DNA from: Candidatus Colwellbacteria bacterium CG10_big_fil_rev_8_21_14_0_10_42_22
Lineage (GTDB): Bacteria; Patescibacteriota; Minisyncoccia; UBA6257; Colwellbacteraceae
Direction: 5' to 3'
Assembly: GCA_002773725.1 (NCBI GenBank)
Contig: PFAH01000008.1
Coordinates: forward strand, 2,654-66,653
Length of the DNA stretch: 64,000 nt
Below the pieces are notes generated by a model. It made no database searches. It was not told where the DNA came from and saw only the letters and a list, made by a program, of their open reading frames with translations. The stretch's first letter is position 1. Each line of letters opens with the position of its first letter. Positions 8,332 through 61,417 of this stretch are shown here, piece after piece. Position numbers and translations under genes: made by a program.

Positions 8332-8355
8332 TTTTTTAGAGTTCTAAAAATAGAA

Positions 8356-8385
8356 TGACCCCCGTCGCTGTGGCGAAGGGGGTCA
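8356..8385. terminator. GC-rich hairpin GACCCCC-n14-GGGGGTC between convergent genes; T-run follows on the minus strand
   Basis: Read directly. On the minus strand the stem is followed by TCTATTTTTAG, so it probably terminates the 8948-to-8403 minus-strand cassette. It may also serve greA. Confidence 0.6.
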
Positions 8386-8402
8386 TTCGTCAGCGAAAGG
8401 GG

Positions 8403-8639
8403 TCAGGTGTTATCGAAGAGCAAGGGAAGGAATGTCATCATCGAGAGGATGGCCGTGACGATCCAGGCCAACACGCTCAAAATGTCGAGTGTCCTCCACG
8501 CCCAAGCATTCCAACCCCATTCTTCCGTTGTATTGGAAGCGAAGCCGGTGGCTAGGGCAAAGATGGCCACGCAGACCGCGATGAGAAGAAACTCCCACCA
8601 CGGATCAAACTCTTCCCTGTTCTTGCTAGACCAGGTCAA
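8403..8639 (-). CDS. hypothetical small membrane protein (78 aa, two hydrophobic helices) in a GC-rich insert
   Basis: ATG preceded by AAAGAGGTG. It lies 28 nt downstream of the 92-aa gene and is followed by the hairpin terminator at 8356-8385. Helices FLLIAVCVAIFALATGF and ILSVLAWIVTAILSMMTFLPLLF. Confidence 0.55.
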   Translation of the reverse strand: MTWSSKNREEFDPWWEFLLIAVCVAIFALATGFASNTTEEWGWNAWAWRTLDILSVLAWIVTAILSMMTFLPLLFDNT

Positions 8640-8669
8640 GGTGCACCTCTTTTTATCCGAGTGGTCTTA

Positions 8670-8948
8670 TCAAGAACGAATGGCGTAAGCCATGCCGTTC
8701 CGAATTTCCCAGCCATACTTCGTGTCCTTGCCGAAAGATGGCCAATGGATGATGTGCCCGTTGGGGTCGCGCCTGAAACGTCCCTTGAAACGCCCCCGAA
8801 TGGGTGTTGCCCCCTCCCACGCCTCATGAGCTTCGATGGTATGCGCGAAATCACCTCCCCCGAGCCTGCGGAGCATGTCTTTGAACTCTGGAGACACGCC
8901 CTTTCCTCTCCCGACGGGTTCTGCGCTGTTTCGTATGGTGTACGCCAC
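8670..8948 (-). CDS. hypothetical protein (92 aa) in a GC-rich insert
   Basis: GTG start preceded by GGGGAGG with a 6-nt spacer and a perfect TATAAT about 20 nt further up (plus coordinates 8967-8972, minus strand). GC is clearly higher than the flanks. Sequence MAYTIRNSAEPVGRGKG...GHIIHWPSFGKD; no family recognised. Confidence 0.55.
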   Translation of the reverse strand: MAYTIRNSAEPVGRGKGVSPEFKDMLRRLGGGDFAHTIEAHEAWEGATPIRGRFKGRFRRDPNGHIIHWPSFGKDTKYGWEIRNGMAYAIRS

Positions 8949-9048
8949 TTATCACCTCCCCGTGATATTATATGGGTAACATATCGAGTTTGGGGTTGTC
9001 CAGTTCTCGCTTTGGGGGAAGGATATGATATTCTAATAACTAGTCAGA

Positions 9049-10392
9049 ATGTTAAGTAGAATTCTCAAAGATAAATTCGGGAGATTAGAAAAGCTTAGAA
9101 AAGCTGGTGTTAATCCCTTTCCTGCAAGAGTTAAGAAGCATTTATCTATTAGTTCGGTATTAAAAGATTTTCCAAGCTTGAGTAAGCACCAAAGACCCAT
9201 CTATGTAGTGGGTAGGATTATATCTCGTCGAGATCAGGGAAAACTTTTGTTTATTGATTTATATGATGGAACAGACAAAATCCAAATTTTTGCAGCTAAA
9301 AAGGAATTGTCTAAATTTGATCTCTGGAAAGACACCCTAGACATAGGAGATTTTATAGGCGTAAAGGGAATTTGTTTCAAAACTAAAAAAGGTGAAAAGA
9401 GTATTCGCGCTAAGAGTTTAGATATACTTGCTAAGAGCTTGAGGCCCTTGCCGGATACATGGTTTGGCTTGAAGGATGTAGAAGAGCGCTTTCGTAAACG
9501 CTATTTAGACATGTTGATGAACTTGGAAGTTAAGGAGTCATTTGATAAGCGCTCTAAAATTGTTAGAGAAATGAGAGAGTTTCTTTGGAAAAACGACTTT
9601 ATAGAAGTAGAAACACCCATGCTCCAGCCAATTCCTGGCGGTGCCCTAGCGGAGCCCTTTAAAACGCACCACAACGCCCTCGGGCAAGATTTCTATTTAA
9701 GAATTGCTCCGGAGCTTTACTTGAAACGTTTACTTGTGGGTGGATTCAATAAAGTTTTTGAGATGGGAAGAATTTTTAGAAACGAGGGTATGGATAGGGA
9801 GCACAATCCTGAATTTACAATGCTTGAACTTTACTGGGCTTATCAGGATTACGAAGGGCTTATCAAGTTTACTGAAAAACTACTGAATAATGTTTTGGGT
9901 AAGAAGAAGTGGGAAAAAATTACTTATGCGGAGGCCTTTAAGAAATATGCTAAAAAGGATCTATCTAAGATAAAAGACAAGGCCTCCGTAGATGATGTTT
10001 TCAAAAGAGAGGTGCGCTCCAAGCTCATTAAGCCAACTATTTTGTGCGATCACCCGAAAGCGATTTCACCTTTGGCTAAATCTAAAATAGATAATCCTGA
10101 AATCACAGAGCGCTTTCAGTTCATCATAGGTGGAGTAGAGATAGCTAATGGATTTAGTGAACTTAATGATCCAATAGATCAAAAAGAAAGGATGGAATAT
10201 CAAGAATCTCTGTTTCGTAAGGGAAACAAAGAGGTAACCCGTATGGACAAAGATTTTTTGGAAGCCCTTGAATACGGTATGCCTCCAGCTGCTGGGTTGG
10301 GTGTTGGTATAGATCGTCTTGTGGTTATCGCGACAAATAGAGATTCGGTAAAGGAGTCGATTATATTCCCAACATTAAAAAGTAAAAAATAA
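9049..10392 (+). CDS. lysS: lysyl-tRNA synthetase (class II)
   Basis: 447 aa with an anticodon-binding OB fold N-terminus. Class II motifs include FRNEGMDREHNPEFTMLELY (motif 2) and GGVEIANGFSELNDP...GLGVGIDRLVV (motif 3). Confidence 0.95.
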   Translation: MLSRILKDKFGRLEKLRKAGVNPFPARVKKHLSISSVLKDFPSLSKHQRPIYVVGRIISRRDQGKLLFIDLYDGTDKIQIFAAKKELSKFDLWKDTLDIGDFIGVKGICFKTKKGEKSIRAKSLDILAKSLRPLPDTWFGLKDVEERFRKRYLDMLMNLEVKESFDKRSKIVREMREFLWKNDFIEVETPMLQPIPGGALAEPFKTHHNALGQDFYLRIAPELYLKRLLVGGFNKVFEMGRIFRNEGMDREHNPEFTMLELYWAYQDYEGLIKFTEKLLNNVLGKKKWEKITYAEAFKKYAKKDLSKIKDKASVDDVFKREVRSKLIKPTILCDHPKAISPLAKSKIDNPEITERFQFIIGGVEIANGFSELNDPIDQKERMEYQESLFRKGNKEVTRMDKDFLEALEYGMPPAAGLGVGIDRLVVIATNRDSVKESIIFPTLKSKK

Positions 10393-10395
10393 AAT

Positions 10396-11613
10396 ATGTT
10401 AGATCCTAATTTTATTCGAGAAAATGTAGATAAGGTTCGAGAGGGTATGAAAAAACGGGGTATGGATGCTGGTATCGTAGATAAATTTTTAGCTGCCGAT
10501 ATGGAGTGGAGAACATATTTGACAGAGGAAGAAGGGATAAGAGCACAACGCAATGTTTTAGGCAAAGAAGATAGAGAACGATCAGGAGCACTTAAAAGAG
10601 AGCTCAAGGAAAAAGAGCCCCTAAAGAAAGATGCTTGGATGAGAAGAGAAGAGTTTTTGCGCGCAATTCCCAACATCCCTGAAGCTAGAGTCCCAGTAGG
10701 CAAGGATGAGGAGGACAATGTTGAATTGAGTAGCTGGGGCAAGATTCCTAAGTTCAAGTTTGAACCCAAAGACCACATGGAACTGGCTGGTCCTTTGATT
10801 AACAAAGAGAAGGCGTCCGAAGTATCGGGCAGTCGTTTTAGTTATATTTTGGGTGATTTAGCATTATTAGAATTTGCTTTAATAAAATATGTATTCGAGA
10901 AGCTATTACCCCACGGATTTATACCAGTGATTCCTCCCGTATTGGTGAAATCTAAAACGATGGTGGGAATGGGTAAGACCAAATTTATAGAAGACGAGGA
11001 TGCTTATTATTTGCCCGCTGACGATTTGTACTTAGTAGGGACAGCCGAGGACTCAATCGGTCCGCTTCACTCTAATGAGATAATTGATATAAAAGAGCTT
11101 CCTAAAAGGTATGTTGGTTTCTCGACTGCTTTCAGAAGAGAGGCGGGTACTTATGGCAAAGATGTTAAGGGTATATTGAGATCTCATCAGTTTGATAAAG
11201 CAGAGATGTTCTCCTTTACTCGGCCGGAAGATTCAGTTAAAGAAAATGAGTTTCTTTTGAAGATGCAGGAAGAGATTATGCGGGGGTTGGGACTCCCTTA
11301 TCGAGTTGTTTATATCTGTACGGCAGATATGGGGTTTACCGCCACTAACCAGTACGATATTGAGACCTGGCTTCCAAGCGAAGGGAAATATAGAGAATCG
11401 CATTCCTGTTCTAATACGACAGATTTCCAATCTCGAGGGTTGAACATCAAATCATCAGAGGGAGAGTTTGTACATATGCTCAATGCCACAGGAGTAGCTA
11501 TTGGGAGGATGTTGATTTATATACTGGAGAATAATCAAACTAAAGACGGCAAAATAAAGATACCAAAAGCTTTGCAACCCTATGTCGGTAAGAAGGAGAT
11601 CAAGAGGGGGTAA
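10396..11613 (+). CDS. serS: seryl-tRNA synthetase
   Basis: 405 aa; an N-terminal coiled-coil arm, then class II core FRREAGTYGKDVKGILRSHQFDKAEMF and GVAIGRMLIYILENNQ. Confidence 0.95.
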   Translation: MLDPNFIRENVDKVREGMKKRGMDAGIVDKFLAADMEWRTYLTEEEGIRAQRNVLGKEDRERSGALKRELKEKEPLKKDAWMRREEFLRAIPNIPEARVPVGKDEEDNVELSSWGKIPKFKFEPKDHMELAGPLINKEKASEVSGSRFSYILGDLALLEFALIKYVFEKLLPHGFIPVIPPVLVKSKTMVGMGKTKFIEDEDAYYLPADDLYLVGTAEDSIGPLHSNEIIDIKELPKRYVGFSTAFRREAGTYGKDVKGILRSHQFDKAEMFSFTRPEDSVKENEFLLKMQEEIMRGLGLPYRVVYICTADMGFTATNQYDIETWLPSEGKYRESHSCSNTTDFQSRGLNIKSSEGEFVHMLNATGVAIGRMLIYILENNQTKDGKIKIPKALQPYVGKKEIKRG

Positions 11614-14453: not shown

Positions 14454-14574
14454 AGATGATACTTATTAACATTGTGTTTGGTGCTCTGGACTGATACAAA
14501 GAGATTAGGAGTCGCAACTAAGAGGGGTTGCAACTTTTTTATTTGTACCTAGACGCAACTAGGAGGTTCAAACC

Positions 14575-14811
14575 GTGAGTAGCGTTGTCGACTACAAGAG
14601 TTGGGAGGATCAGGGTTCATTGCCTGCTTCTCAAATTCAGTCAGGCGACTCGATCAGTGGCCCCTATGGCAAGATCGTTGAATACACTGAGTGTATTCCC
14701 GGCGGCATTCCGAAGATTCGGATTACGTTCGAAGACGGCACACAACAACTCGTCGATAAGGGCCTTATGTTCCATGTTTGGAGACAGCCGTACAGGCGAG
14801 GCGATTGGTAA
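14575..14811 (+). CDS. hypothetical small protein (78 aa) in a GC-rich insert
   Basis: GTG start with AGGAGG 7 nt upstream. Followed by a long GC-rich hairpin plus TTTTT (14873-14938). Composition differs from the flanks. Confidence 0.5.
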   Translation: MSSVVDYKSWEDQGSLPASQIQSGDSISGPYGKIVEYTECIPGGIPKIRITFEDGTQQLVDKGLMFHVWRQPYRRGDW

Positions 14812-14872
14812 TGAATGGACTCGTGGATTTCGGCTCCCAAGAGGTGCGACCCTCAAAAACTTGCCCCGGCGC

Positions 14873-14938
14873 GCGAGAACCCCGACACGATATGTGTGTC
14901 AGGCAACTCGTGCATCATGCCGGGGTTCTCGCTTTTTC
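14873..14938 (+). terminator. intrinsic terminator (GCGAGAACCCCG ... CGGGGTTCTCGC TTTTT)
   Basis: 12-bp perfect stem read directly, with a structured ~36-nt loop containing GACAC/GTGTC, then a T5 run. Confidence 0.6.
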
Positions 14939-15014
14939 GAGTGAGAAAGCTTAGAATCTTCTTTGTAGACCCCCTATATAAAGGCAACTAGGGGGGATTT
15001 CTGCGTTTAACTCC

Positions 15015-17033
15015 ATGTTGAAACTGATATCAGAAAAAAAACCGGCGGGGGACCAACCCAAAGCCATAGATGCCCTGGTTAAAGGATTAAAAAAAGGTCT
15101 TAAGCACCAAACTCTTTTAGGCGTAACCGGTTCAGGTAAAACCTTCACTATCGCCAATGTTATAAACGAAGTGAAAAGACCAACCCTTGTTATCGCACAT
15201 AATAAAACTTTGGCTGCTCAGCTTTGTAATGAATTTAGAGAGCTGTTTCCCGAAAACCAAGTCCACTATTTTGTTTCATACTACGATTACTACCAACCAG
15301 AAGCATATCTTCCCAATACAAATACATATATAGCCAAAGAGGCGCATACAAATGACGAGATAGACCGCCTACGTCACGCTGCCACCACGGCTCTTTTGAC
15401 TCAAAAAGATGTAATTATTGTGGCATCCGTCTCGGCCATTTATGGCCTCGGCACGCCGGAGCTTTATAGAGAAAACATTCTTCACTTTAAAATAGGCGAT
15501 CAGATATCCCGCGAAGAATTGGCGAGGCGTTTAATCAGGGTACAGTTCACGCGTACCAACGCCAACCTTAATCGAGGTTCTTTTCGTTTGCGAGGAGATA
15601 ACTGGGAGATAATGTCTCCTCACGACGACGTTGTTTACAACTTCGTTATGGATAAAGGCAAGATATCAAAGATATATATAGTAGATCCGACTATCGGCTT
15701 CAGTTACGAAAAGACGCCAAGCACGGACGAAGTTTATATATCACCCGTTAAACACTACATTACTTTAGATAGTCAGATAGAGGTAGCTCTTAAAAATATC
15801 GAACAAGAAATGAAGGAAAGAATCAAATATTTTGAAAAAGAAGGCAAACTTTTGGAAGCAGAGATTATAGAACGTCGCACCAAGGGCGATATGGCGATGA
15901 TTCGGGAAGTGGGATATTGCAATGGCATTGAGAATTATTCAAGACATTTAGATGGCAGAGCTCCGGGTGAGCCCCCCGCCACTTTACTTGATTACTTTCC
16001 CGAGGATTTCTTGCTGGTTATAGATGAGTCGCACGTAACGGTGCCACAAATCAGAGGTATGTTTGAGGGAGATGCTTCTAGAAAAAGGACTTTGATAGAA
16101 CATGGTTTTCGCCTCCCGTCAGCTTCTGATAACCGCCCCCTTAAATTTGGTGAATTCGAAAAAAGAGTAGGACAAACAATATACACATCGGCTACGCCGA
16201 GTGTCTATGAGGCAGAACACAGTCAAAAAACGGTTGAGCAGGTTATTAGACCCACTGGTCTAGTTGATCCAATCATCACTATCCGTCCGGCTAAGGGTCA
16301 GATAGACGATCTTATACCTCGCATCAAAGAGCGGATAGAAAAAAGCGAGAGGGTGCTTGTAACGACTTTGACAAAGAAGATGGCAGAGGACCTAAACGAC
16401 TATTTACACGACTTAGGTTTAAAAGTTAATTATTTACACAGCGACGTTGAAACATTGGATAGGATTAGAATTCTGACGGGTCTTAGGAGAGGCGACTTTG
16501 ATGTTTTAGTTGGAGTAAACCTGCTTAGGGAAGGATTAGATTTGCCAGAAGTATCTTTAGTGGCAATCCTAGATGCTGACAAAGAGGGATTCTTACGTAG
16601 CGAAACAGCGCTTATCCAGACAATTGGTCGGGCGGCCAGAAACGTAAACGGGGAAGTACTGATTTATGCAGACCAAATAACTGGTTCGGTAAAAAGGGCT
16701 GTTAGCGAAACAGAGAGGAGAAGAAAGATCCAAATAGCTTATAACAAAAAGCATGGCATTACTCCCCAAACAATTGTTAGAAACATTCAAGATATTTTAC
16801 CAATTGAGAACCGCGAAAGAGAGGCAAAAATAGGTGAAATACTTGAACTTGAGGTAGGTGCGTTACCCAAAACAACCAAGCGTATTGAAGAGATGATTAG
16901 AGACAAAGAACGAGAAATGAAGGAAGTAGCTAAAAAACTGGATTTTGAGTTGGCAGCTATCTTAAGAGATGAGCTGGTGATCCTTAAAGAAAAAATGAGT
17001 CATAAGAACAAAAAGAAACATGGCTCCGCCTAA
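15015..17033 (+). CDS. uvrB: excinuclease ABC subunit B
   Basis: 672 aa; Walker A GVTGSGKTF, helicase motifs, the beta-hairpin region and the C-terminal UVR coiled-coil ELAAILRDELVILKEKM. Confidence 0.95.
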   Translation: MLKLISEKKPAGDQPKAIDALVKGLKKGLKHQTLLGVTGSGKTFTIANVINEVKRPTLVIAHNKTLAAQLCNEFRELFPENQVHYFVSYYDYYQPEAYLPNTNTYIAKEAHTNDEIDRLRHAATTALLTQKDVIIVASVSAIYGLGTPELYRENILHFKIGDQISREELARRLIRVQFTRTNANLNRGSFRLRGDNWEIMSPHDDVVYNFVMDKGKISKIYIVDPTIGFSYEKTPSTDEVYISPVKHYITLDSQIEVALKNIEQEMKERIKYFEKEGKLLEAEIIERRTKGDMAMIREVGYCNGIENYSRHLDGRAPGEPPATLLDYFPEDFLLVIDESHVTVPQIRGMFEGDASRKRTLIEHGFRLPSASDNRPLKFGEFEKRVGQTIYTSATPSVYEAEHSQKTVEQVIRPTGLVDPIITIRPAKGQIDDLIPRIKERIEKSERVLVTTLTKKMAEDLNDYLHDLGLKVNYLHSDVETLDRIRILTGLRRGDFDVLVGVNLLREGLDLPEVSLVAILDADKEGFLRSETALIQTIGRAARNVNGEVLIYADQITGSVKRAVSETERRRKIQIAYNKKHGITPQTIVRNIQDILPIENREREAKIGEILELEVGALPKTTKRIEEMIRDKEREMKEVAKKLDFELAAILRDELVILKEKMSHKNKKKHGSA

Positions 17034-17088
17034 GGCGGATGCTCATAGTTTTAACTAAAATAAATTTTAGAAAACAATGGCACAAAAT
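17025..17088 (+). repeat. copy A of a ~64-nt intergenic module (CCGCC-TAA-GGCGG hairpin, AT-rich tract, start codon)
   Basis: TCCGCCTAAGGCGGATGCTCATAGTTTTAACTAAAATAAATTTTAGAAAACAATGGCACAAAAT. It matches 34070-34132 with about 4 mismatches. The uvrB stop codon TAA forms the hairpin loop, and the module runs into the first codons of uvrA. Confidence 0.85.
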
Positions 17089-19647
17089 AAAATAATCATA
17101 AAAGGAGCTAGAGAGCATAATCTTAAGAATATAAACTTAGAGATACCTCGAGACAAAATGATTGTTTTTACGGGTCTCTCCGGTTCGGGCAAGTCCTCTT
17201 TAGCGTTTGATACTATTTTTGCAGAAGGGCAAAGACGCTATATAGAATCATTATCTGCTTATGCGAGACAATTCTTGGGGCGATTAGATAAACCCGACGT
17301 TGATGAAATAGAAGGATTATCTCCCGCCATTTCAATTGATCAGAAAAGCCATTCTTCTAACCCCAGATCAATTGTGGCGACCATCACCGAAATTTACGAC
17401 TACATGAGGGTTTTATACTCGCGCATTGGCAAACCACATTGCGTAGAATGTGGAGATGAAATAAGACGGATGTCTTCCGGGGAAATAGTAGACGCAATCA
17501 TAGAAACATTAAATACAGAAAAGGAGGCCAAAGAATTAATCGTGATGGCGCCCGTGGTTATTGGTAGGAAGGGCGAATACTATCAATTACTATACGATTT
17601 CCTTGGTTCCGGTTTTACTGAAAGTAGAGTTGACGGGGAATTTCGTTCTCTGCGCGATAGAATAGAAATGGCGCGTCACAAGCGCCATGATATCGATTTA
17701 GTTACAGACAAGATATCCGTCAGTACGGATTTTGGATCTAAGGATGGCAGATTAAGATTGGCTGAAGCCGTGGAGTTGGCGCTCAAATATGGTCACGATT
17801 CCGTAAAGATACTTTTTTCAAAAACCTTAAGTGGTCTTTATCAAAAAAGTATTAAAAAAGACACTAAAGAAAAGGAGATTATTTTTTCAGCACGTTTTGC
17901 CTGCCCGAAGGATAATTTTTCTTTTCCCGAAATTGAGCCACGACTTTTTTCATTCAACAGCCCCTATGGTGCATGTCCAGAATGTCATGGACTTGGCACA
18001 GAGAGCGTGTGGTCTGAAAGGCCTTGTGAAGTGTGCCAAGGTAAGCGTTTAAGACCGGAAGCTCTAAGCGTATTTATAAAAGGCAAAAATATTGTAGAAG
18101 CCACCGCCTTTTCAATAGGTGATGCTATTGATTTCTTTAATTCATTTGACGGATTGTCTACTCAGGACAAAGAGATAGCCCAAGCCCCTCTTAGAGAAAT
18201 TGGTTATCGACTTCAATTTATGAATGATGTTGGTTTGGAATACATTACTCTTGATAGAAAAGCGGGAACACTTTCGGGAGGAGAAGCCCAAAGAATTCGT
18301 TTGGCCTCTCAGATTGGTTCACGTTTGGTCGGGACTCTCTATATTTTAGACGAGCCAACTATCGGTTTACACCAACGAGATAATACTAAGCTGGTAAAAA
18401 CCCTTCAGGACTTGAGGGATTTAGGGAACACCATCGTGGTGGTAGAGCATGACGAAGAGACGATTAGAGCATCCGATTATCTTGTTGATATTGGGCCGGC
18501 TGCCGGAATTCATGGAGGAGAAATCGTAGCCGAAGGCAAAGTGCCCGAAATATTCAAAGATAAATCTCAAAAATCCCTGACTTTGGATTACTTACGAGGC
18601 GATAACGAGATTCCTTTACCGGAGGAAAGAAGAAAGATAAAAACTCCTGGAGATTATTTAAGAATCAAAGGGGCGACTGAAAATAATCTTAAGGGAATAA
18701 ATGTTGATATACCGCTTCGTAAATTCGTAACCGTTACGGGTGTTTCTGGTTCTGGAAAGAGTTCTCTTGTTTACGACGTTCTCTACAAAACTCTGGCTAA
18801 CAAGTTCAATCGCGCTAGTTACCAAGAGGGTGGGCACAAAAGTATTTTGGGCATGGAGTATGTAAATAGGGTGGTAAACATCGATCAATCTCCAATAGGT
18901 AGGACGCCTCGTTCAAATCCGGCCACGTATGTAGGCGCTTGGACATATATCCGAGAACTTTTTTCAGCTACTCCCGAAGCTAGGTTTAGGGGGTATAAAC
19001 CGGGTAGGTTTAGTTTCAATGTAAAAGGAGGAAGGTGTGAGAATTGTCAGGGTCATGGGCAGATTGCAATCGAGATGCATTTTTTGCCAACCGTTTATGT
19101 TAATTGTGATGCGTGTCATGGTAGGAGATTTAATCGGGAAACTTTGGAGGTGGTCTATCGAGATAAGAATATTTTTGAAGTATTAGAGATGACAATTGAA
19201 GAAGCGGTTAAATTTTTTGAAGACATACCTTGGCCTTACGACCGACTAAAAATTATGGACGAGGTGGGTCTTGGATATTTAAAGATTGGGCAATCTGCCA
19301 CCACATTGTCGGGCGGAGAAGCGCAGAGAATAAAGCTGGCTAAAGAGCTTGGAAAAAGGGACACTCGCAGAACCCTCTACCTATTAGACGAGCCCACCAC
19401 CGGATTGCACTTCGAGGATGTTAAAAAGTTATTGATTGTTCTTCAACGACTTGTTGATCGGGGTAATACTGTAGTGGTCATTGAGCATAACTTAGATGTG
19501 ATTAAAACATCCGATTGGGTTATAGATTTGGGGCCTGGAGGTGGAGATAAGGGTGGAGAAGTGGTGGTTGCCGGCACGCCCGAAGAGGTGGCAAGAAAAA
19601 AGACGAGCTATACTGGTGAATATTTGAGAAAAGTACTGAAATGTTAA
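17077..19647 (+). CDS. uvrA: excinuclease ABC subunit A
   Basis: 856 aa with two ABC cassettes: [14 protein letters not shown] and [11 protein letters not shown] Walker A, two LSGGEAQR signatures, and zinc-finger Cys pairs. It is shorter than the usual ~940 aa. Confidence 0.93.
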
Positions 19648-21838: not shown

Positions 21839-22042
21839 GAAATGTTTTTCTTTTTGGGGAGAGGGGAGGGGGAGAAAGCGAGCTCAACTCGATCACTAAG
21901 GCCATCGGCCCACTGGACCTTCGCTCGAATCTCTCCCTCTACCGCCGTTCACGGCTGTGGTACTAGGCGGCGCTCCTCTTGCTGTTGCTATCCATGGGAT
22001 CCTCCCATGTGATTCGCTCCGGAACAAGTCCGGCTTCTTTAT

Positions 22043-23299: not shown

Positions 23300-23350
23300 T
23301 TTGACGTTTTTCCTATAATACGATGTCTCCACGCTAGGTAAGGAGATACG

Positions 23351-23881: not shown

Positions 23882-23904
23882 TCGTGCTACATGAGGGGGC
23901 GATG

Positions 23905-54189: not shown

Positions 54190-54250
54190 AAAAACAGAAA
54201 CGCCCACCAAAGATAGCGAGCAGAATCTGCTCACGTCCCCAGTGGGCGCG
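54190..54250 (-). terminator. intrinsic terminator for the minus-strand small-gene operon (CGCCCAC...GTGGGCG with inner GAGCAG/CTGCTC; U-run on the minus strand)
   Basis: Read directly: plus strand AAAAACAGAAACGCCCACCAAAGATAGCGAGCAGAATCTGCTCACGTCCCCAGTGGGCG. On the minus-strand transcript the stem is followed by UUUCUGUUUUU. Confidence 0.6.
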
Positions 54251-54263
54251 TGATGAGGTGTTC

Positions 54264-54605
54264 CTAGTTTTCGTCCTCATCTTCAGCTTCAGAGAACCAC
54301 TTCTCGTTTTCGGGGGGCGCAATTCGCACCTCGACGACGTAGGAGCCCCCACAATCGTCGAGTTCCTGTCCACAGAACGGACAGATGTACTCGAGCAATC
54401 CATTGACCCGAAGATCCCCTCCTGGTGCTCTGCCCCCCGCATTGCATTCCCATTCCGTAGAAGAGTCAGCAATGGATGCACCGATTGCCTTGAAGTGTTC
54501 CTCGACAATCTCAATACAGGCACAGACATCCGGATCGATGAGGTCTGCCGAGCATTCGAATTTTTCGAAAGCCCTGCCAACGAAGTCCAAGTCGATGGGT
54601 TTCAT
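54264..54605 (-). CDS. hypothetical acidic protein with Cys pairs (zinc-ribbon-like), GC-rich island gene 5
   Basis: 113 aa; CSADLIDPDVCAC...EWECNAGG...ICPFCGQELDDCGG and the tail EAEDEDEN. AGAAGGGA lies upstream of the ATG. Last gene before the terminator. Confidence 0.5.
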   Translation of the reverse strand: MKPIDLDFVGRAFEKFECSADLIDPDVCACIEIVEEHFKAIGASIADSSTEWECNAGGRAPGGDLRVNGLLEYICPFCGQELDDCGGSYVVEVRIAPPENEKWFSEAEDEDEN

Positions 54606-54620
54606 ACTTCTTGTTCCCTT

Positions 54621-54989
54621 CTACGCAATCCAAAGACCGTGCAGACCGGATAGTTCACGCCTGAACACTCCGCCCCTCTTCTCCACATGCTCGCGAAACA
54701 TACGAAAAACGTTGTCCACGTTCTCCGCGTCGTACCACCCATCGTATAGACCATCATCATCGAGGGCGATGTAAATGAGTCCTTTTGGTTGGAGAGAAGC
54801 ATCGTGCTGGGAAATGACCTCCTCACGTTCTTCGTCCCAGAGAAGAATGTGACCCATGTTGGGCAGAAACCCCACTCTTTTCCCGAGGATTCTTGGATGG
54901 GATTTCTCCAAGTTGGCCAATGCCGTTCCGCCGGGGTGGTGTCCCTCTGTCCATCCATACCTCGCCCTATAGAGCCAAAGCGTTTCCAT
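54621..54989 (-). CDS. hypothetical protein, GC-rich island gene 4
   Basis: 122 aa; AAGGGG 5 nt before the ATG, and 11 nt after the stop of gene 3. The alternative frame 54602..54994 looks compositionally like noise. Confidence 0.45.
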   Translation of the reverse strand: METLWLYRARYGWTEGHHPGGTALANLEKSHPRILGKRVGFLPNMGHILLWDEEREEVISQHDASLQPKGLIYIALDDDGLYDGWYDAENVDNVFRMFREHVEKRGGVFRRELSGLHGLWIA

Positions 54990-55000
54990 ATCAACCCCTT

Positions 55001-55339
55001 CTAGGTACCGATGGTGTGAATACCGCGTTGCCCCGGATACTCTGGGGCCTCGACGATGGTTCGTGTCCTCACATACGCGTCGTAGTTGTCTTCATAAACC
55101 CAACCCAGGATTATTCCATTCAGGTTGTTGTCTTCGAAGAAAACTCGAATCTTATGACCAACATGTGGCCATGCTCCGGTGTGGTAGTTGAAGTGCTCAC
55201 CCTCCATCCATGAAAGAAGCCCTCCATTGGAAAGATCGAATTGGTGAATCTGGTAAGATTCGTTCAAACGAACTTCTCCCACCATATTCGTGACATCGAC
55301 CTCGATAACCACACCAGCATGCCAATCGCGATATGTCAT
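55001..55339 (-). CDS. hypothetical protein, GC-rich island gene 3
   Basis: 112 aa from the ATG at 55339 (MTYRDWHAGVVIEV...). The ATG overlaps the stop of gene 2 in an ATGA motif, indicating translational coupling. Confidence 0.45.
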   Translation of the reverse strand: MTYRDWHAGVVIEVDVTNMVGEVRLNESYQIHQFDLSNGGLLSWMEGEHFNYHTGAWPHVGHKIRVFFEDNNLNGIILGWVYEDNYDAYVRTRTIVEAPEYPGQRGIHTIGT

Positions 55340-55500
55340 GATCTGTGTCCTCCGGTTGTTATGAAGCGACGAAATCTCGGATTGTGGCGGTTGTCCCTGC
55401 ACTCAAGTCGAGCGGGCGCAACTCGCATCTTCTTGTCTTCACGATGCAGAAGTTTGGGAGAGCCCAACGCTTGTGCAACATGTCTCCAGAAATCGTTCAT
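55336..55500 (-). CDS. hypothetical small basic protein, GC-rich island gene 2
   Basis: 54 aa from the ATG at 55500, with GAGGAAG 7 nt upstream. The ORF track extends to a GTG at 55548, which has no ribosome-binding site. Arg/His-rich. Confidence 0.4.
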   Translation of the reverse strand: MNDFWRHVAQALGSPKLLHREDKKMRVAPARLECRDNRHNPRFRRFITTGGHRS

Positions 55501-55609
55501 AGTTCTCTTCCTCAGTTGTGAAAGAGCGAAGCCCTTTCTTTTCCCCACGGGGCTTATAGGTCTTGAATATGCAATATTTATAAGAGTCAGTCAACTTCGT
55601 TAGAGTTAA

Positions 55610-55625
55610 GCTATCTCAAGATAGC
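55610..55625. promoter_or_regulatory. near-perfect palindrome GCTATCT-CA-AGATAGC in the intergenic region upstream of the gene 2-5 operon
   Basis: Read directly. A TTGACT box (minus strand, plus coordinates 55589-55594) lies next to it. Candidate operator. Confidence 0.4.
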
Positions 55626-55746
55626 CATCGGATGCCAAAGGGCACTTTATCTCTAACGGGGTCAATTTTAATACACCCAAAAATGCATGAACCCCACCTT
55701 TGTGAAATCGGGCGGGATTCACGCAGATGGGGTTGTTGGGCTCGCT

Positions 55747-55983
55747 TTAGACGCGCCCTCGGATTCTGGGAAAAGAGAAGCATCGGTCGTGCTGATGGCA
55801 CCTCTCGGCGCTGTTGTAGATAGAAAGGCGAATTTCGCAGCCCTTCTCCGCGCAAATGCGTCCCGTGGGATACACCTTGTGTTTGCGGTTGCTTCCGCCG
55901 ATTCTTCTCGCAATTGTCGGATTGCGACGCGTAGTCGCTCCTCCAAAATTGCCTCCCACTCCCTCGTTCTCAAAGAGCGGCAT
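55747..55983 (-). CDS. hypothetical zinc-finger-like small protein, GC-rich island gene 1
   Basis: 78 aa; GGGAGG with a 6-nt spacer before the ATG. Cys/His pattern CAEKGC-x12-CHQHDRC. It is the first gene downstream of the divergent promoter region. Confidence 0.5.
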   Translation of the reverse strand: MPLFENEGVGGNFGGATTRRNPTIARRIGGSNRKHKVYPTGRICAEKGCEIRLSIYNSAERCHQHDRCFSFPRIRGRV

Positions 55984-56009
55984 CTTTTTCCTCCCTATCC
56001 CGATGCCTT

Positions 56010-56126
56010 AGACCCCTAAAATACAATTTTTAATTATTAAAAGTCAATATTCGTATTTGACTAGCGAAATAAATTGTGGCAATTTCTATATGTACATTGA
56101 AGTCTAAGTTGAAGGGAGCGTTCATC
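56010..56126. promoter_or_regulatory. divergent control region between the minus-strand and plus-strand small-gene operons
   Basis: AT-rich, with AGTCAA (56042-56047) and TTGACT (56057-56062) forming an inverted pair of -35-like boxes 9 nt apart (AGTCAA-ATATTCGTATT-TGACT). Genes with good ribosome-binding sites start on both sides. Confidence 0.45.
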
Positions 56127-56405
56127 GTGCAAGACATTCCCGAAAACGTGGAACTCGGAAGTCAGCTCTATTGGGAGTATCGACTTCGCAACGAACTGAA
56201 CTCCAGATGGAATCGTGTTGCCAATCATCTCGTGGCTTTGAAGAAGCGGATGTATGAACAGAGATGTGATGACGGATGCATTCTCGGGATTTGGCACTGG
56301 CTTGTGAATCAGTGGGGAGAGTCCCTTCTGAGAAGGCGTAATGCCTGCGAGGAACGCATTCGCATTTTGGAGCACCAGATTTGGATTAAAGGAGAACGAG
56401 AATGA
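56127..56405 (+). CDS. hypothetical protein, GC-rich island plus-strand gene 1
   Basis: 93 aa from the GTG at 56127, with AAGGGAG 8 nt upstream. The ORF track ATG at 56076 lacks a ribosome-binding site. The stop overlaps the next ATG (ATGA). Confidence 0.4.
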   Translation: MQDIPENVELGSQLYWEYRLRNELNSRWNRVANHLVALKKRMYEQRCDDGCILGIWHWLVNQWGESLLRRRNACEERIRILEHQIWIKGERE

Positions 56406-56650
56406 ATGGTATGAGCATCATTCAGCGCATTGACACCGCCTTCATCCTTATAGCAAGCGTTGTCGGGTTTGTAGTTGGCGTTGTTGCGGGTTTGCTTACT
56501 GGTCTTTGTGTCCTTGTCGGCGTTGTTTTCGGTTTTGATTGGCTCCTAGAAATCAATCCGAGATATTTGGTTGCCGTTTCGGTCTTTGTTGTTTGCCTGA
56601 CGGTAATCGTGCTGGCGAGGATTCGATTGAAGAAAGAAATGCTTCTGTGA
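56402..56650 (+). CDS. hypothetical small membrane protein, GC-rich island plus-strand gene 2
   Basis: 82 aa; AAGGAG 7 nt upstream; hydrophobic stretches FILIASVVGFVVGVVAGLLTGLCVLVGVVFGF and YLVAVSVFVVCLTVIVLA. Confidence 0.5.
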   Translation: MNGMSIIQRIDTAFILIASVVGFVVGVVAGLLTGLCVLVGVVFGFDWLLEINPRYLVAVSVFVVCLTVIVLARIRLKKEMLL

Positions 56651-56886
56651 TGGAAAATCCTTCCGAGCGAACGGCGTTGGCTGTCGTCATCGGTATCGCT
56701 GTCACACTGGTGTTGGTCTGGTTTGCCTTCCGTGTGGGAGACCCCCAGTGGTTCATTCTCATCCTCGCTTTTCCTATCGGTGTCGTCTCCTTCCTCGCTC
56801 TCGTTTTCAGCTTGGTGTGCTGTCTTCAGAAGGGGATTTGCACAGCGATCATCGAAGACAAGCGCCGGCAAAAGCCGGACAGGTAA
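56650..56886 (+). CDS. hypothetical small membrane protein, GC-rich island plus-strand gene 3
   Basis: 78 aa from the ATG at 56650, overlapping the previous stop (TGATG). Two TM helices and a CC pair. The terminator follows immediately. Confidence 0.45.
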   Translation: MENPSERTALAVVIGIAVTLVLVWFAFRVGDPQWFILILAFPIGVVSFLALVFSLVCCLQKGICTAIIEDKRRQKPDR

Positions 56887-56887
56887 T

Positions 56888-56946
56888 ACCCGCACATCGA
56901 GACGCAAAACTCGCGCGTCTTAGGGGGAGATGTGCGGGTTTTGTGC
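56888..56946 (+). terminator. intrinsic terminator (ACCCGCACATC ... GATGTGCGGGT TTTGTGCTTC) with an inner palindrome GAGACGC/GCGTCT
   Basis: Read directly; an 11-bp outer stem followed by a T-rich tract. Confidence 0.65.
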
Positions 56947-56971
56947 TTCTTGGGTGTATGATTAGAGCAGT

Positions 56972-57990: not shown

Positions 57991-58037
57991 AAACGAAGAA
58001 GACCACCGCGGGGCGAGGGAAGACGATGGTCTTCTTC
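57990..58037 (-). terminator. intrinsic terminator (11-bp stem GAAGAAGACCA/TGGTCTTCTTC; U-run on the minus strand)
   Basis: Read directly. On the minus-strand RNA the stem is followed by GUUUUUA. It sits between convergent tspO and the 58583-to-58065 gene. Confidence 0.6.
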
Positions 58038-58064
58038 GGGCCGTGATGGTCTTTTGATGTGGTT

Positions 58065-58583
58065 CTAGCAGACGGGTATGGGGGCAATCAATCGCCCACG
58101 CGACCGCCTGCAGTCGGCGATGTCCCAGACCTCCACGAGATCCAGATCGCCGTTCCCTCCGTCGCCGTGCTCGAACGAGCGGTGTTCCAGCTCCGGAACC
58201 TCTTCGATTGCTCTTGAGCAACAGACGCTCGCGAACACGGAAGGCATCATGAGATCAGCGATCTCATGATCGCGGAGGCGGAGGAGCAGATCCTCCAAGT
58301 CCGAGACCGCTTCGTCCCAGGCGGTCTCTTCGCACCAGACCGGCGCGAATCCAAATCGGCGATCGTACCGGTGCGGACGGTACTCATAGAGCACCGTCAC
58401 GCCATCAGGCGGGATGCAGGGCATGGTGCCCTTTTCCACCCACGGCTCGCACTCGCGGAAAATCACTTCCCCCCCGTTACGCAGGGGAGCGATGACTTTC
58501 CGACCTCGCTGGGTCGGTTCGATGATGGCAAACCACTCACCATCATCACCTTGAAATGCTTCAAAGATCGTTCCCCCAAACAT
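58065..58583 (-). CDS. hypothetical protein (172 aa), GC-rich
   Basis: ATG at 58583 with AAGGAGGG 4 nt upstream. A TTGACA-17-TACAAA promoter lies on the minus strand (plus coordinates 58622-58650). The terminator is downstream. No family recognised. Confidence 0.5.
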   Translation of the reverse strand: MFGGTIFEAFQGDDGEWFAIIEPTQRGRKVIAPLRNGGEVIFRECEPWVEKGTMPCIPPDGVTVLYEYRPHRYDRRFGFAPVWCEETAWDEAVSDLEDLLLRLRDHEIADLMMPSVFASVCCSRAIEEVPELEHRSFEHGDGGNGDLDLVEVWDIADCRRSRGRLIAPIPVC

Positions 58584-58644
58584 GGTCCCTCCTTCTTGTC
58601 GCTTCAAGGACCGTTGCGGTGTTTGTACCATAAAACAGAATAAA

Positions 58645-58700: not shown

Positions 58701-58734
58701 CTTTTCCGCCTACTTATTTGTAGAAAAACTTATC

Positions 58735-58803
58735 TGACAGTAGGTACGCCTACCTGACAGTAGGTGCGCCTACCTGACAGTAGGTAGGCCTGCCTGCCGA
58801 TAG
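58735..58803 (+). repeat. three tandem ~20-nt units (TACCTGACAGTAGGT-N-CGCC), each a CCTAC/GTAGG mini-hairpin, in the rnpB leader
   Basis: Read directly: TATCTGACAGTAGGTACGCC TACCTGACAGTAGGTGCGCC TACCTGACAGTAGGTAGGCC, then TGCCTGCCGATAGGCAGGG. Related GC-rich motifs (CCTGCC, TAGGTAGG, and the palindrome CCTACCGGTAGG) recur at 59211-59262, 3-prime of rnpB. Confidence 0.7.
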
Positions 58804-59210
58804 GCAGGGAGGCAATTTAGATAGCAGCTTTGTGGACTCTACACAGTCGAGATAGTGATTGTTCTTTACATCAGGAGTCCGCAAAGAGGAAAGTCCGGAC
58901 ACTCCTCCGACTTAGGTCGGAGAGCAGGGTAGCGGGTAATACCCGTCGTTCGAAAGAATAGAGGTGCGAGCAGTGACGCTCTGTTTAGAAATATGCAGAG
59001 AGGCCCGATCCCAACGTAGATGGTCTAATCCCGCCATAGGGGCAAAAAGCGGGAGTGAAACGGCTAAATCCTTACCTGAGTGCAAGGCCGTGCTCCGACT
59101 TCGGTCGGAGAGAGCCGCACGAGCTTGAGAGTAATCGATGGCCTAGATAGATTGCTATCATCCGACCACGCGTCGGATTACAGAATCCGGCTTATTAATT
59201 GCCTCCCTGC
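58804..59210 (+). ncRNA. rnpB: RNase P RNA (bacterial type A)
   Basis: P1 pairing GCAGGGAGGCAATT (5-prime) with AATTGCCTCCCTGC (3-prime). P4 strands AGGAAAGTCCGGACACTCC and ACAGAATCCGGCTTAT. Conserved AGGGTAGCGGGTAATACCCG, GGGCAAAAAGCGGGAGTGAAACGGC and TGAGTGCAAGGCCGTGCTCCGACTTCGGTCGGAG modules. Confidence 0.85.
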
Positions 59211-59263
59211 TTACCGGCAGACAGACCTGCCTGCTGATAGGTAGGCCTGCCTACCGGTAGGTA

Positions 59264-60146: not shown

Positions 60147-60171
60147 ATTAAAGTTTTGTTATAATTAAGGT

Positions 60172-60504
60172 ATGAAGACGCTTCTTCGTTGGATAGCTCT
60201 GACGCTTACGATATTGGCTCTTTCGAATCTTCTACCATCTGTCAGTATAGACGGATTTTTGACAGCCCTGGTGGCTGCCTTAGTTTTGGGTATCATCAAC
60301 ACTTTTTTAAAGCCGATTATTACCTTCGTTGCTTTCCCCATAAACCTCCTTACATTTGGTCTTTTTACATTAGTTATTAACGCTGGCCTTGTGATGTTGG
60401 CAACTTATATTGTGCCGGGATTTGAGGTAGCTGGTTTTTGGTCTGCAGTTTTGTTCGGTTTTCTACTATCGATTATTTCACCCATTATTTCACTTATTTT
60501 TTAA
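60172..60504 (+). CDS. DUF360 / phage-holin-4-like four-TM membrane protein
   Basis: 110 aa; FLTALVAALVLGIINTFLKPIITFVAFPINLLTFGLFTLVINAGLVMLATYIVPGFEV matches the PF04020 pattern. Confidence 0.6.
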   Translation: MKTLLRWIALTLTILALSNLLPSVSIDGFLTALVAALVLGIINTFLKPIITFVAFPINLLTFGLFTLVINAGLVMLATYIVPGFEVAGFWSAVLFGFLLSIISPIISLIF

Positions 60505-60582
60505 CCCGTTAGGAACAGATCGTTCCTAGATGGTCGTAGCCCACGCTTTTGCAGAGTGTTTTCTAACGGGCTGAAGCGCCTA

Positions 60583-60688
60583 TTGACACCTAGTTTTCTA
60601 TGTTATAGAATTTACTTGTCTGCTGAAGGATTCGTCTTTCGGTAGACAACCAAGAAAGGCCCCCGTCAGGGGGTTTTTCTTTTTTCCC
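60583..60688 (+). ncRNA. candidate small RNA: a strong promoter (TTGACA-17-TAGAAT) followed about 50 nt later by a canonical intrinsic terminator
   Basis: -35 at 60583-60588 and -10 at 60606-60611. Predicted transcript of about 70 nt (60619-60688) contains the internal stem TTGTCT...AGACAA and the terminator GGCCCCCGTCAGGGGGTTTTTCTTTTTT. No ORF with a ribosome-binding site. Confidence 0.5.
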
Positions 60689-60802
60689 CATCCGCCTGGT
60701 TATTCATTAGTTACAAATAGCAGTCCGCCTTTGGCGGAGCGCATATCAAATTGACAATTATGAATATTTGTATCATCATCCGAGAGTCCTTTAAAATACA
60801 TC

Positions 60803-60856
60803 CTCTTGCAAGCTTCTTAGTAAGTTTGTAATTAGCTTTCTAAGAAGCTTGCAAGA
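60803..60856 (+). promoter_or_regulatory. long perfect inverted repeat (17-bp arms, 19-nt loop) in the pgsA 5-prime region
   Basis: CTCTTGCAAGCTTCTTAG...CTAAGAAGCTTGCAAGA, read directly. Each arm contains the 8-bp palindrome CTTGCAAG. It ends about 25 nt before the pgsA ATG. Confidence 0.55.
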
Positions 60857-60880
60857 ATTACTCCAAAGAAAGGGGCAGGC

Positions 60881-61417
60881 ATGCTAAAGAAATTGCCCAA
60901 CTGGTTGGGCTACGCGAGAATGGTCCTGACCCCTGTGGTTATGGGCTTCATCTACTACGGTGACAACGAATTCTGGACGGGGTTCGTTTTCGCCATCGTT
61001 GTGGCGACAGATGGCCTTGATGGCCCCATCGCCCGAGCAACACATTCGACCAGCCAATTTGGCATCATGTTGGACACGCTGGCAGACAAGTTCTTGATTG
61101 CCGGTTGTGTCCTCGCGTTGGTAGCCAAGGACCCAGTTTGGCTTTGGGCGGGATTCATCATCATCGACCGTGATTTCTTGGTGATGACGCTGAAGGCAAA
61201 CGTAGGCGGGGGCTTCATCAAGGCATCCAACTTGGGAAAGATCAAGATGGGCCTTCAATCGGTGGCTATCTACCTGGTCATCAATCCTTGGCCTTTCAAT
61301 GGTGCCACCGGCTGGAACTCTCCTGGTGGGGCGGTGATGGCGTTGGCTCTTTGGTTCACCCTCTTCTCGGCTTGGGACTACTACCACAAGTACACCCGTT
61401 TCTTGCGGTGGAATTAA
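60881..61417 (+). CDS. pgsA: CDP-alcohol phosphatidyltransferase (phosphatidylglycerophosphate synthase-like)
   Basis: 178 aa; D-G-x2-A-R ... G-x3-D-x3-D signature in ATDGLDGPIARATHSTSQFGIMLDTLADKF. GC is clearly higher than the neighbouring genes. Confidence 0.75.
   Translation: MLKKLPNWLGYARMVLTPVVMGFIYYGDNEFWTGFVFAIVVATDGLDGPIARATHSTSQFGIMLDTLADKFLIAGCVLALVAKDPVWLWAGFIIIDRDFLVMTLKANVGGGFIKASNLGKIKMGLQSVAIYLVINPWPFNGATGWNSPGGAVMALALWFTLFSAWDYYHKYTRFLRWN

Follow-up and report, generated by a model that had tools for sequence, protein, structure and literature searches.

GC-rich patches in a Patescibacteria chromosome, probably old clade-restricted genes in fixed slots together with structured RNA elements

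GC-rich patches lie between core genes

The stretch of DNA analysed here (the window, 64 kb in full) is a piece of a Patescibacteria (candidate phyla radiation, CPR) chromosome. It encodes a core of ribosomal proteins, rpoA, greA, lysS, serS, uvrABC, ychF, a secA-like gene, lepA, prfB, ftsEX and three tRNAs at a mean GC content of 41.8%, and the best identities of its UvrB among the matches listed (59-61%) are to metagenome-assembled genomes of Magasanikbacteria, Uhrbacteria and Parcubacteria. The pgsA-like protein has a 100% identical match in a metagenome-assembled genome labelled 'Candidatus Colwellbacteria bacterium CG10_big_fil_rev_8...'. Our subject is the set of seven GC-rich patches in the gaps between these genes, numbered 1 to 7, and two further GC peaks: about a dozen small genes and a few RNA elements that stand 10-20 GC points above their neighbours (Table 1). 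An earlier reading of the sequence (the original prediction) had taken the patches as compact inserts with their own expression signals and had raised the idea of recent transfer from a high-GC host. Here we report that the patches are real but, with a probability that we put at roughly 55%, mostly old, clade-restricted and fast-diverging residents of fixed slots, accompanied by structured RNAs.

Table 1 Features of the GC-rich patches and neighbouring RNA elements, in window coordinates (z, standard deviations above length-matched background)
Feature	Position	Strand	Product	GC	z	Remarks
Patch 1, GC-rich stretch	8390-8960			0.555	6.6	
Patch 1, two-gene unit	8403-8948	-				from sequence and translations
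P1a	8670-8948	-	92 aa			Shine-Dalgarno sequence GGGGAGG before it
P1b	8403-8639	-	78 aa			predicted membrane protein
Patch 1 terminator hairpin	8353-8388					followed by T run
Patch 2, GC-rich stretch	14560-14945			0.531	4.5	
P2a	14575-14811	+	78 aa			Shine-Dalgarno sequence AGGAGG upstream
Patch 2 3' element	14873-14937	+				12-bp GC-rich hairpin (GCGAGAACCCCG...CGGGGTTCTCGC), then TTTTT; upstream of uvrB leader
Patch 3, non-coding element (~190 nt)	21850-22040	listed +, not settled		0.581	4.3	between ychF and a small gene
Patch 4, GC-rich stretch	23330-23940			0.545	6.4	
Patch 4	23295-23935	+				upstream region 23295-23350, P4 coding sequence, terminator hairpin ~23905-23935
P4	23351-23881	+	176 aa			
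Island 5 (patch 5)	54190-56950	divergent operons		0.501	7.3	terminator hairpins at both ends (54201-54234, ~56888-56945)
5a	54264-54605	-				
5b	54621-54989	-				
5c	55001-55339	-				
5e	55747-55983	-				Zn-ribbon-like
5f	56127-56405	+				
5g	56402-56650	+				predicted membrane protein
5h	56650-56886	+				predicted membrane protein
Patch 6, GC-rich stretch	57995-58640			0.590	8.6	
P6	58065-58583	-	172 aa	0.60		GC at third codon positions 0.71; Shine-Dalgarno sequence AAGGAGG
RNase P RNA, bacterial class A-like	58843-59206	+				Rfam RF00010; GC peak outside the originally predicted patches
Patch 7, GC-rich stretch	60881-61470			0.539	6.0	
Patch 7, pgsA-like CDP-alcohol phosphatidyltransferase	60881-61417	+	178 aa			GC at third codon positions 0.72
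Patch 7 terminator hairpin	61446-61473					directly upstream of tRNA-Gln (61551-61624)
T-box-like leader	62629-62804	+				Rfam RF00230; GC peak outside the originally predicted patches

All seven patches lie 4.3-8.6 standard deviations above a background of 802-1117 length-matched windows that avoid the patches. No background window reaches any patch value, and all seven patches are also visible in a sliding GC profile. The tetranucleotide composition of the patches is nearly uncorrelated with that of the core (r = -0.19 to 0.30, versus 0.96-0.97 between core segments), and the patches correlate only moderately with one another (0.25-0.54). Patch open reading frames (ORFs) were chosen by their Shine-Dalgarno (SD) sequence, start codon and codon-position GC. 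The GC content at third codon positions (GC3) is 0.49-0.72 (mean 0.617) in 13 patch genes and 0.28-0.49 (0.377 +/- 0.037) in 54 core genes (Mann-Whitney p = 3e-8), reaching 0.65 and 0.72 in the two genes of patch 1. Patch proteins are also poor in Lys (3.3% vs 8.7% in core proteins) and rich in Trp (3.7% vs 1.0%), with Arg, Gly, Cys and His raised as well. At four-fold degenerate sites GC is 0.61 in patch genes and 0.38 in the core; the excess is therefore not a matter of amino-acid composition alone, which is ruled out as its sole cause. The predicted contrast between GC-rich patches and a low-GC genome is thus borne out.

The same sequence as the window is found on several independently assembled contigs (ENA and JGI samples) at 99.93% identity or above. 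Patch 1 lies on five such contigs and patch 4 on two, with zero differences inside the patches, and this recurrence rules out an assembly chimera. Across seven near-identical contigs no differences fall within patches, which gives no hint of ongoing hypermutation.

For the coding patches, the picture of compact units with an SD sequence and a hairpin terminator between low-GC core genes holds: a terminator hairpin follows every coding unit, and terminator-like hairpins are enriched between 53.4 and 62 kb (26 versus 9.2 +/- 3.5 in shuffled sequence). The predicted consensus promoter boxes fared worse. Sigma-70-like hexamer pairs show no clear enrichment over shuffled sequence (33 versus 31.8 +/- 5.5 and 17 versus 11.7 +/- 3.2), several of the boxes read by eye have non-canonical spacing, and promoter-like hexamers occur at some units only (P6, 5e, 5c and the pgsA-like gene). 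Upstream of P6, for example, stands TTGACA-17-TACAAA, and its terminator hairpin lies at ~57995-58040. No motif shared upstream or downstream of the patches was found.

Patch genes occupy the same slots in related genomes

The closest relative reached was GCA_043819735.1 (loci L086, L094 and L097 of our comparison). Its core proteins are mostly 70-90% identical to those of the window (full range 46-91%); the lower-identity core neighbours are few, for example a 75-aa gene and the rhodanese gene. Silent and nonsilent divergence (pS and pN, Nei-Gojobori) was estimated between the window and this genome. For core genes pS is 0.68-0.85, that is, silent sites are saturated, and patch genes shared by the two genomes must consequently be old. 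Homologues at the same locus were found in relatives for P2a, P4, four genes of island 5 (5b, 5c, 5f and 5g) and the pgsA-like gene. The idea that the patches are inserts relative to other genomes is supported for some of them: patch 1 is missing from two relatives (L093 and L101), and an unrelated GC-rich cassette fills the patch 2 slot of L093. Absence from the same locus in relatives applies to patch 1 only.

P4 and P2a best illustrate the pattern. Orthologues of P4 stand at the same position in L094, L096 and L101 (33%, 38% and 32% identity), the L094 copy with a GC content of 0.53 and a GC3 of 0.63. The 80 nt upstream of P4 are kept in all four genomes; besides a TATAAT box they include a hairpin in which the SD sequence is paired (window 23318-23350), and the compensatory change UCUCC/GGAGA versus CCUCC/GGAGG in this hairpin suggests that its conserved sequestering of the SD sequence may serve translational control. 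P2a has a homologue of 74 aa in the same slot of L094 (31% identity, blastp 1.5e-9, GC 0.54; pN 0.45 < pS 0.78). The upstream and terminator flanks of both units are ~80% identical to L094 at the nucleotide level, whereas the interiors of the coding sequences cannot be aligned as DNA, and protein identity falls to 31-35% for the two, where most neighbours keep 70-87%. The patch 2 3' element, which from its sequence may be a terminator or a structured element, is ~78% identical in L094 at the nucleotide level, and its stem differs there by a compensatory change (GAAC/GTTC versus GAGC/GCTC). In L093 the patch 2 slot holds instead a cassette of 57-59% GC, in which no similarity to P2a could be detected.

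Island 5 comprises seven or eight genes of 78-122 aa that are small, narrowly distributed, fast-evolving and clustered. Past the rhodanese gene, L097/L099 have a GC-rich island of ~3 kb at the corresponding locus, in which homologues of 5b (68%), 5c (46%), 5g (48%) and 5f (58%) occur among unrelated small genes; L100 also has an island, and both L097 and L100 carry small genes of high GC content in slots where the window has none. P6 has two relatives, P0015 (52%) and P0019 (36-39%), the latter located within the island-5-equivalent region of L100.

In patch 7, the original reading of a recognisable pgsA gene stands in so far as the protein is a clear CDP-alcohol phosphatidyltransferase (PF01066, E = 5e-28, 98.9 bits where 22 is the gathering score, the match covering positions 3-151 of a 152-position profile); against the TIGR00560 pgsA equivalog it scores 94 bits, under the cutoff of 109.1. 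An orthologue with 64% identity stands at the same locus of L086, behind the same PDDEXK and holin-like genes, with a GC3 of 0.68 in a ~39% GC context whose genes have 0.31-0.40. One 35% match on a short metagenome contig was the only other relative detected. Taken together, the orthologue and this match provide no evidence for the cellular donor that the gene had been thought to indicate. The pgsA-like gene is also the only patch gene adjacent to a tRNA, tRNA-Gln. L086 and L087 are 99.7% identical through pgsA, and the GC-rich genes directly past the 3' end of tRNA-Gln differ between the two, an M49 peptidase (GC 0.58) versus a 178-aa ORF (GC 0.57).

Across these comparisons pN is below pS in every patch gene compared (for example 0.51/0.78 for P4, 0.20/0.74 for 5b and 0.23/0.69 for the pgsA-like gene), which together with conserved length, start codon and SD sequence points to real protein-coding genes. 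Their composition is equally persistent. With core silent sites saturated, a vertically inherited gene would be expected at compositional equilibrium; the patch genes nevertheless keep a GC3 of 0.5-0.7 both in the window and in GCA_043819735.1. Same-locus orthologues lie ~12 GC points (GC3 +0.2 to +0.3) above their own genome, including relatives with 50% GC: P4 orthologues have a GC content of 0.53 and 0.545 in genomes of ~0.41-0.42 GC, and of 0.62 and 0.63 in genomes of ~0.50-0.51 GC (L096 and L101).

Patch 1 behaves differently. The gap between greA and lysS that holds it in the window is 52 nt long in L101 and contains a low-GC methyltransferase gene in L093, and a P1a homologue (GC 0.60) is found at a different locus in L103. 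The C-terminal 50 residues of P1a match the N-terminal part of small HNH proteins, and the HNH motif itself is absent. P1a may thus be a truncated or repurposed nuclease domain that ends before the catalytic motif, as judged from an alignment with the relatives P0056 and P0059. In L103, at 1441-1530 and 1797-1890, a ~65-nt direct repeat (GTCTCCCTAGTGANAGGGAGTTGGAACC...TTAAGGCCTT) stands before both members of a pair of neighbouring GC-rich genes that includes the P1a homologue. The repeat, which was found neither in the window nor in 102 other loci, could be a shared promoter, an operator or a cassette-associated site.

Relatives of the patch proteins are few and lie within Patescibacteria

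An exhaustive phmmer search with nine concatenated patch proteins against 1.84 billion representatives returned five relatives or fewer for most patch families, and the named relatives are all Patescibacteria, including Colwellbacteria RBG_13_48_8. P4 has three relatives (33-40% identity), 5c one (48%) and 5f one (59%); P1a is related to P0025, P0049, P0056 and P0059, and the small Zn-ribbon-like protein 5e has a larger family around it. P2a, 5a and 5b retrieved only themselves; the sole homologue of 5b is the same-locus gene in L097, and 5a has none. A word-index search with the patch proteins found only the P4 protein itself. Among Pfam, PHROGs, NCBIfam and PADLOC profiles, no patch protein had a match except the CDP-alcohol phosphatidyltransferase, with no PHROG below E = 0.004, and the AlphaFold2 model of P4 (pLDDT 79) has no neighbour in the PDB with a TM score above 0.33. 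Best-match taxonomy thus points to Patescibacteria and Colwellbacteria, not to the high-GC host donor that had been envisaged.

Two families have distant relatives in mobile-looking surroundings. A member of the 5e family lies on a phage-like contig of 58.7% GC that consists of tiny ORFs all pointing the same way and also encodes a Gp80-family protein, and the HNH relative of P1a lies on a contig of 60.5% GC among genes for restriction, methylase, helicase, excisionase-type helix-turn-helix and resolvase proteins. From these sequence contexts, a GC-rich mobilome is a plausible ancient source for part of the cassette set. Direct searches for phage were negative: megablast with the first 25 kb of the window found no phage DNA, tblastn with the nine concatenated patch proteins found no match in 50,697 phage records, and scans of viral contigs with four families (P4, P6, 5e and 5b) found none. 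As the phage searches were negative and the neighbours are housekeeping genes (greA, lysS, uvrB, ychF and others), we do not regard the patches as part of a phage or prophage genome.

No integrase is encoded in the window, and neither target-site duplications nor shared flanking or boundary repeats above chance were found across the patches. The patches share no repeated element that could serve as an integron attC site. A diversity-generating retroelement or hypermutation was likewise rejected: no repeat pair of that type involves the patches, and the seven near-identical contigs show no population variation within them.

Several GC peaks are probable RNA elements

When a genome is AT-rich, a raised GC content between its genes is a well-known sign of structured RNA and has been used for the discovery of non-coding RNAs. 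This sign fits four elements of the window (patch 3, the hairpin element of patch 2, the T-box-like leader and RNase P RNA) and does not account for the protein-coding patches. The RNase P RNA is likely a divergent CPR form: the RF00010 model matches over its full span (1-367) with 64.4 bits and E = 4e-18, below the gathering score of 100. The T-box-like leader matches RF00230 with 34.5 bits and E = 9e-5, below the gathering score of 93, and stands directly upstream of an ORF resembling class II aspartyl- or asparaginyl-tRNA synthetases that runs off the window (to 64000).

Patch 3, originally listed together with the other GC-rich patches, proved to be non-coding; we found no credible ORF in it. 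The element is present in L094 and L101/L102 and absent in L093. Its consensus fold, drawn from only three distinct sequences, has 30 pairs, four of which (4/30) show compensatory double changes, and several G-U pairs of this fold favour the + strand, whereas single-sequence folding against shuffles gives z = -1.6 (+) and -2.8 (-). An Rfam scan of patches 1-4 returned no match. On these sequence comparisons patch 3 is a candidate conserved structured RNA.

Two observations concern the surroundings of these elements. On either side of the RNase P RNA gene stands one of two inverted arms of 67 nt (58729-58817 and 59197-59263, 79% complementary), made of tandem 20-nt palindrome-like units (CCTACCTGACAGTAGGT...); the arms might form a long-range stem, contain processing sites or be a repeat element. 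Upstream of the pgsA-like gene, 60583-60690 holds the best promoter-like site of the region, TTGACA-17-TAGAAT (11/12), followed ~50 nt on by a GC hairpin and T run (GGCCCCCGTCAGGGGGTTTTTCTTTTTT). From this arrangement we consider an ~80-nt transcript possible, a small RNA or a leader; the Rfam scan of the interval gave weak noise matches only.

Probable long residence of fast-diverging cassettes

In the reading that we favour, the patches would be of two kinds. One would comprise structured RNA elements, that is, RNase P RNA, the T-box-like leader, patch 3 and the 3' hairpin element of patch 2, whose paired stems would stand out in an AT-rich genome. The other would comprise self-contained small-gene cassettes, the flexible 'dark-matter' genes of a clade of Colwellbacteria-like Patescibacteria. 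All of these cassettes lie in gaps between core operons and have their own upstream region, SD sequence and GC-rich intrinsic-terminator-like hairpin; they would probably be expressed independently, insulated from their neighbours. Most cassettes would be long-term residents that are inherited vertically together with conserved regulatory flanks, given that homologous genes with conserved flanks occupy the same slots in relatives saturated at silent sites. Their coding sequences have changed far more than those of most neighbours, and a minority of slots show gain, loss or replacement by unrelated GC-rich genes. The ultimate source would presumably be a GC-rich mobilome (phage and other mobile elements) and not a cellular host. 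The products, which include small soluble, Zn-ribbon and membrane proteins, may have conflict or interaction functions; such functions would account for the fast divergence.

Several points weigh against long vertical residence. The comparison covers about five related genomes. The P4 tree tracks the core tree only weakly: the identity of the window-L094 pair (33%) is not above that of the cross pairs, and the highest is between L096 and L101 (45%). The pS of 5g (0.53) and 5f (0.60) is below that of every core gene, which could mean newer exchange instead of vertical descent. The link to a mobilome consists of distant relatives (E 1e-4 to 1e-6) of two proteins only, 5e and P1a, and the four viral-contig scans and the phage tblastn were negative. 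Vertical descent alone also leaves the composition unexplained and would need an additional, postulated force, as genes that reside for long and diverge fast should have lost their GC excess. Under the model of Lawrence and Ochman, as cited in PMC12455944, amelioration is expected of old acquisitions, and fast-diverging genes of bacteria should tend towards AT-richness (PMC12315717).

The near-constant GC offset at genome GC contents of 41-51% indicates either an in-place process that favours GC or a continuing input of alleles via the conserved flanks. Possible processes of the first type are biased gene conversion (PMC4450053) and selection that acts on codons or on mRNA; the weak congruence of P4 with the core together with the lower pS of 5f and 5g leaves room for allele input. 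Our leading candidates for what would maintain the excess are thus continued allele input via the conserved flanks and GC-biased gene conversion.

In one rival reading, allele input would be a recurrent replacement in situ, in which the flanks act as homology arms and the interiors of coding sequences are swapped in from a GC-rich Patescibacteria pool (phage, plasmids or DNA uptake) that sets their composition. The ~80% identical flanks around interiors that cannot be aligned are what such swapping would leave, as are the failure of P4 identity in the window-L094 pair to follow the core tree, the unrelated GC-rich cassette in the same slot of L093, and the low pS of 5f and 5g. Relatives of 5e and P1a do lie on GC-rich, mobile-looking contigs, and gene transfer in Patescibacteria is reported to take place mostly between Patescibacteria (PMC12455944). 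The near-clonal contigs, however, show no allelic variation, and no member of a patch family was found on viral contigs or phage genomes in the four family scans and the phage tblastn. The GC content of P4 orthologues also moves with genome GC (0.53-0.545 versus 0.62-0.63), which fits evolution in situ better than an external pool. We regard this explanation as tentative, the odds being clearly against it.

Somewhat less probable still is a locus-specific process acting on vertically inherited genes, either GC-biased gene conversion or selection for GC-ending (rare) codons or stable mRNA that sets expression. It would explain why the excess is largest at third and four-fold sites, why it persists despite saturated silent divergence and why the offset is nearly constant across genomes of 41-51% GC, and in many bacteria recombination is associated with GC3 via non-optimal GC-ending codons (PMC4450053). 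A GC3 shift of +0.24 would nonetheless be very large for a within-genome effect of recombination, the most AT-rich genomes may be exceptions to the association (PMC4450053), and the amino acids have shifted too (Lys and Trp in particular), which looks more like a different origin. A bolder form of the idea combines the two mechanisms: a CPR clade would keep dedicated small-protein genes in fixed slots, with conserved regulatory flanks around coding sequences of extremely rapid divergence, and would hold them ~12 GC points (GC3 +0.25) above the genome at any genome GC by a locus-specific process that favours GC, such as GC-biased conversion during frequent allele exchange via the conserved flanks. 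We think this a speculative proposal that is doubtful at present; if true, it would describe a compositional regime opposite to the AT-rich drift expected of ORFans and fast-evolving genes.

The original prediction, in which a cellular organism of high GC content (perhaps the host of an episymbiont) recently donated the patches by horizontal transfer and they were inserted singly into intergenic gaps, is now very improbable. It has in its favour that composition and codon usage look foreign and that Lys has shifted to Arg, the absence of patch 1 from two relatives, the difference in GC-rich genes beside tRNA-Gln between the otherwise near-identical L086 and L087, and the genomic islands and gene transfer documented in Patescibacteria (PMC12455944). 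For five of the seven patches a recent arrival is contradicted by homologues in relatives saturated at silent sites: those of P2a, P4, island 5 and the pgsA-like gene stand at the same loci, and the regulatory flanks are conserved. The P4 orthologue is GC-enriched even in relatives with 50% GC, there were zero matches to high-GC cellular taxa, all named relatives being Patescibacteria, and integrases, target-site duplications and shared boundary repeats were not found. Host-to-episymbiont transfer is an attractive idea in CPR biology, yet the patch signal does not support it.

That all patches are non-coding structured RNAs, their ORFs being chance products of stop-poor GC-rich sequence, is scarcely credible: the general signature of GC-rich intergenic RNAs, the three or four RNA elements among the GC peaks and the overlapping ORFs on both strands of every patch speak for it, but ORF length, start and SD sequence are conserved across genomes for P4, P2a, 5b, 5c and the pgsA-like gene, protein homology is detectable where DNA no longer aligns, pN is below pS, codon-position GC is coding-like, the pgsA-like gene has a clear Pfam domain, and the P4 model reaches its pLDDT of 79.

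Relation to known systems

Phage morons, described by Hendrix and colleagues, are reportedly additional genes of deviant composition, each with a promoter and a terminator of its own, placed between two conserved genes. The cassettes, as predicted from sequence, are alike in being autonomous units with a terminator between conserved genes and in their differing composition; unlike morons, they lie among chromosomal housekeeping genes, with no adjacent phage genes and no phage homologues found.

The genomic islands of Patescibacteria (PMC12455944) share with the patches an atypical composition in streamlined CPR genomes, exchange within the phylum and small cargo without known function. The units described here differ from them in being single genes or ~3 kb long, in having no integrases or flanking repeats, and in keeping their position in genomes saturated at silent sites; composition-based island detection takes such old acquisitions as already ameliorated (PMC12455944). 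Archaeal 'dark matter islands' consist of narrowly distributed, fast-evolving small genes, often from mobile elements and with defence or membrane functions (PMC4158269), and island 5, a cluster of small, poorly conserved, lineage-restricted genes, fits that description. The differences are that the present case is bacterial, has a consistent GC excess and includes single-gene islets in fixed slots. Bacterial ORFans are likewise short, lineage-restricted, rapidly diverging and of disputed origin (PMC12315717, PMC3514957); they are typically AT-richer than the genome or the same (PMC12315717, PMC3514957), whereas patch genes are 10-20 points GC-richer. With GC-biased gene conversion (PMC4450053) the patches have in common a raised GC3, mainly through non-optimal GC-ending codons, in a subset of genes, but the effect here is very large and the amino-acid composition is shifted as well. 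What is unusual is that the deviation is towards GC, that orthologues in the same position retain it, and that conserved flanks enclose hyper-divergent coding sequences.

For annotation, this separates three look-alikes in GC plots of AT-rich CPR genomes: accessory genes that are old and clade-specific, cassettes subject to turnover, and structured RNAs, of which one may be new. A GC excess that tracks genome GC at a constant offset goes against both the usual picture of amelioration and the AT-richness of ORFans. If the pattern is genome-wide, it would offer a tractable case for what sets composition at the level of the gene (recombination-linked conversion, codon selection or input from a mobile pool), and would flag candidate genes for conflict or host interaction in an uncultivated lineage.

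Further observations at neighbouring loci

Near patch 7, L086 carries at 10635-10993, just upstream of tRNA-Gln, a 93-aa GIY-YIG ORF that begins as a duplicate of the tRNA 5' end (LPDRLVV...). It is missing in the near-identical L087 and resembles an insertion of the homing-endonuclease type.

Directly upstream of P4, the window has a 154-aa gene (22835-23299) without similarity to the 107-114-aa gene found there in L094, L096 and L101, whose members are 43-62% identical among themselves; this neighbour of normal GC content has thus also been replaced in the window lineage. After P4, L094 and L101 have an IMPDH gene that the window does not.

Core gene content around uvrABC varies among relatives as well. 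These genes (window 15015-20828) are missing between the 99-aa gene and ychF in L101 and L102, and L093 has glmS where the window has uvrC.

Finally, the window contains three copies of a native intergenic module of ~60 nt (17025-17086, 33002-33063 and 34070-34131), standing before uvrA, a 2-hydroxyacid dehydrogenase-like gene and eno-like genes. Each consists of a hairpin (TCCGCCTAAGGCGGA) and an AT-rich TTTTAACTAAAATAAAT stretch, and two of the copies are 94% identical (repeat family D2).

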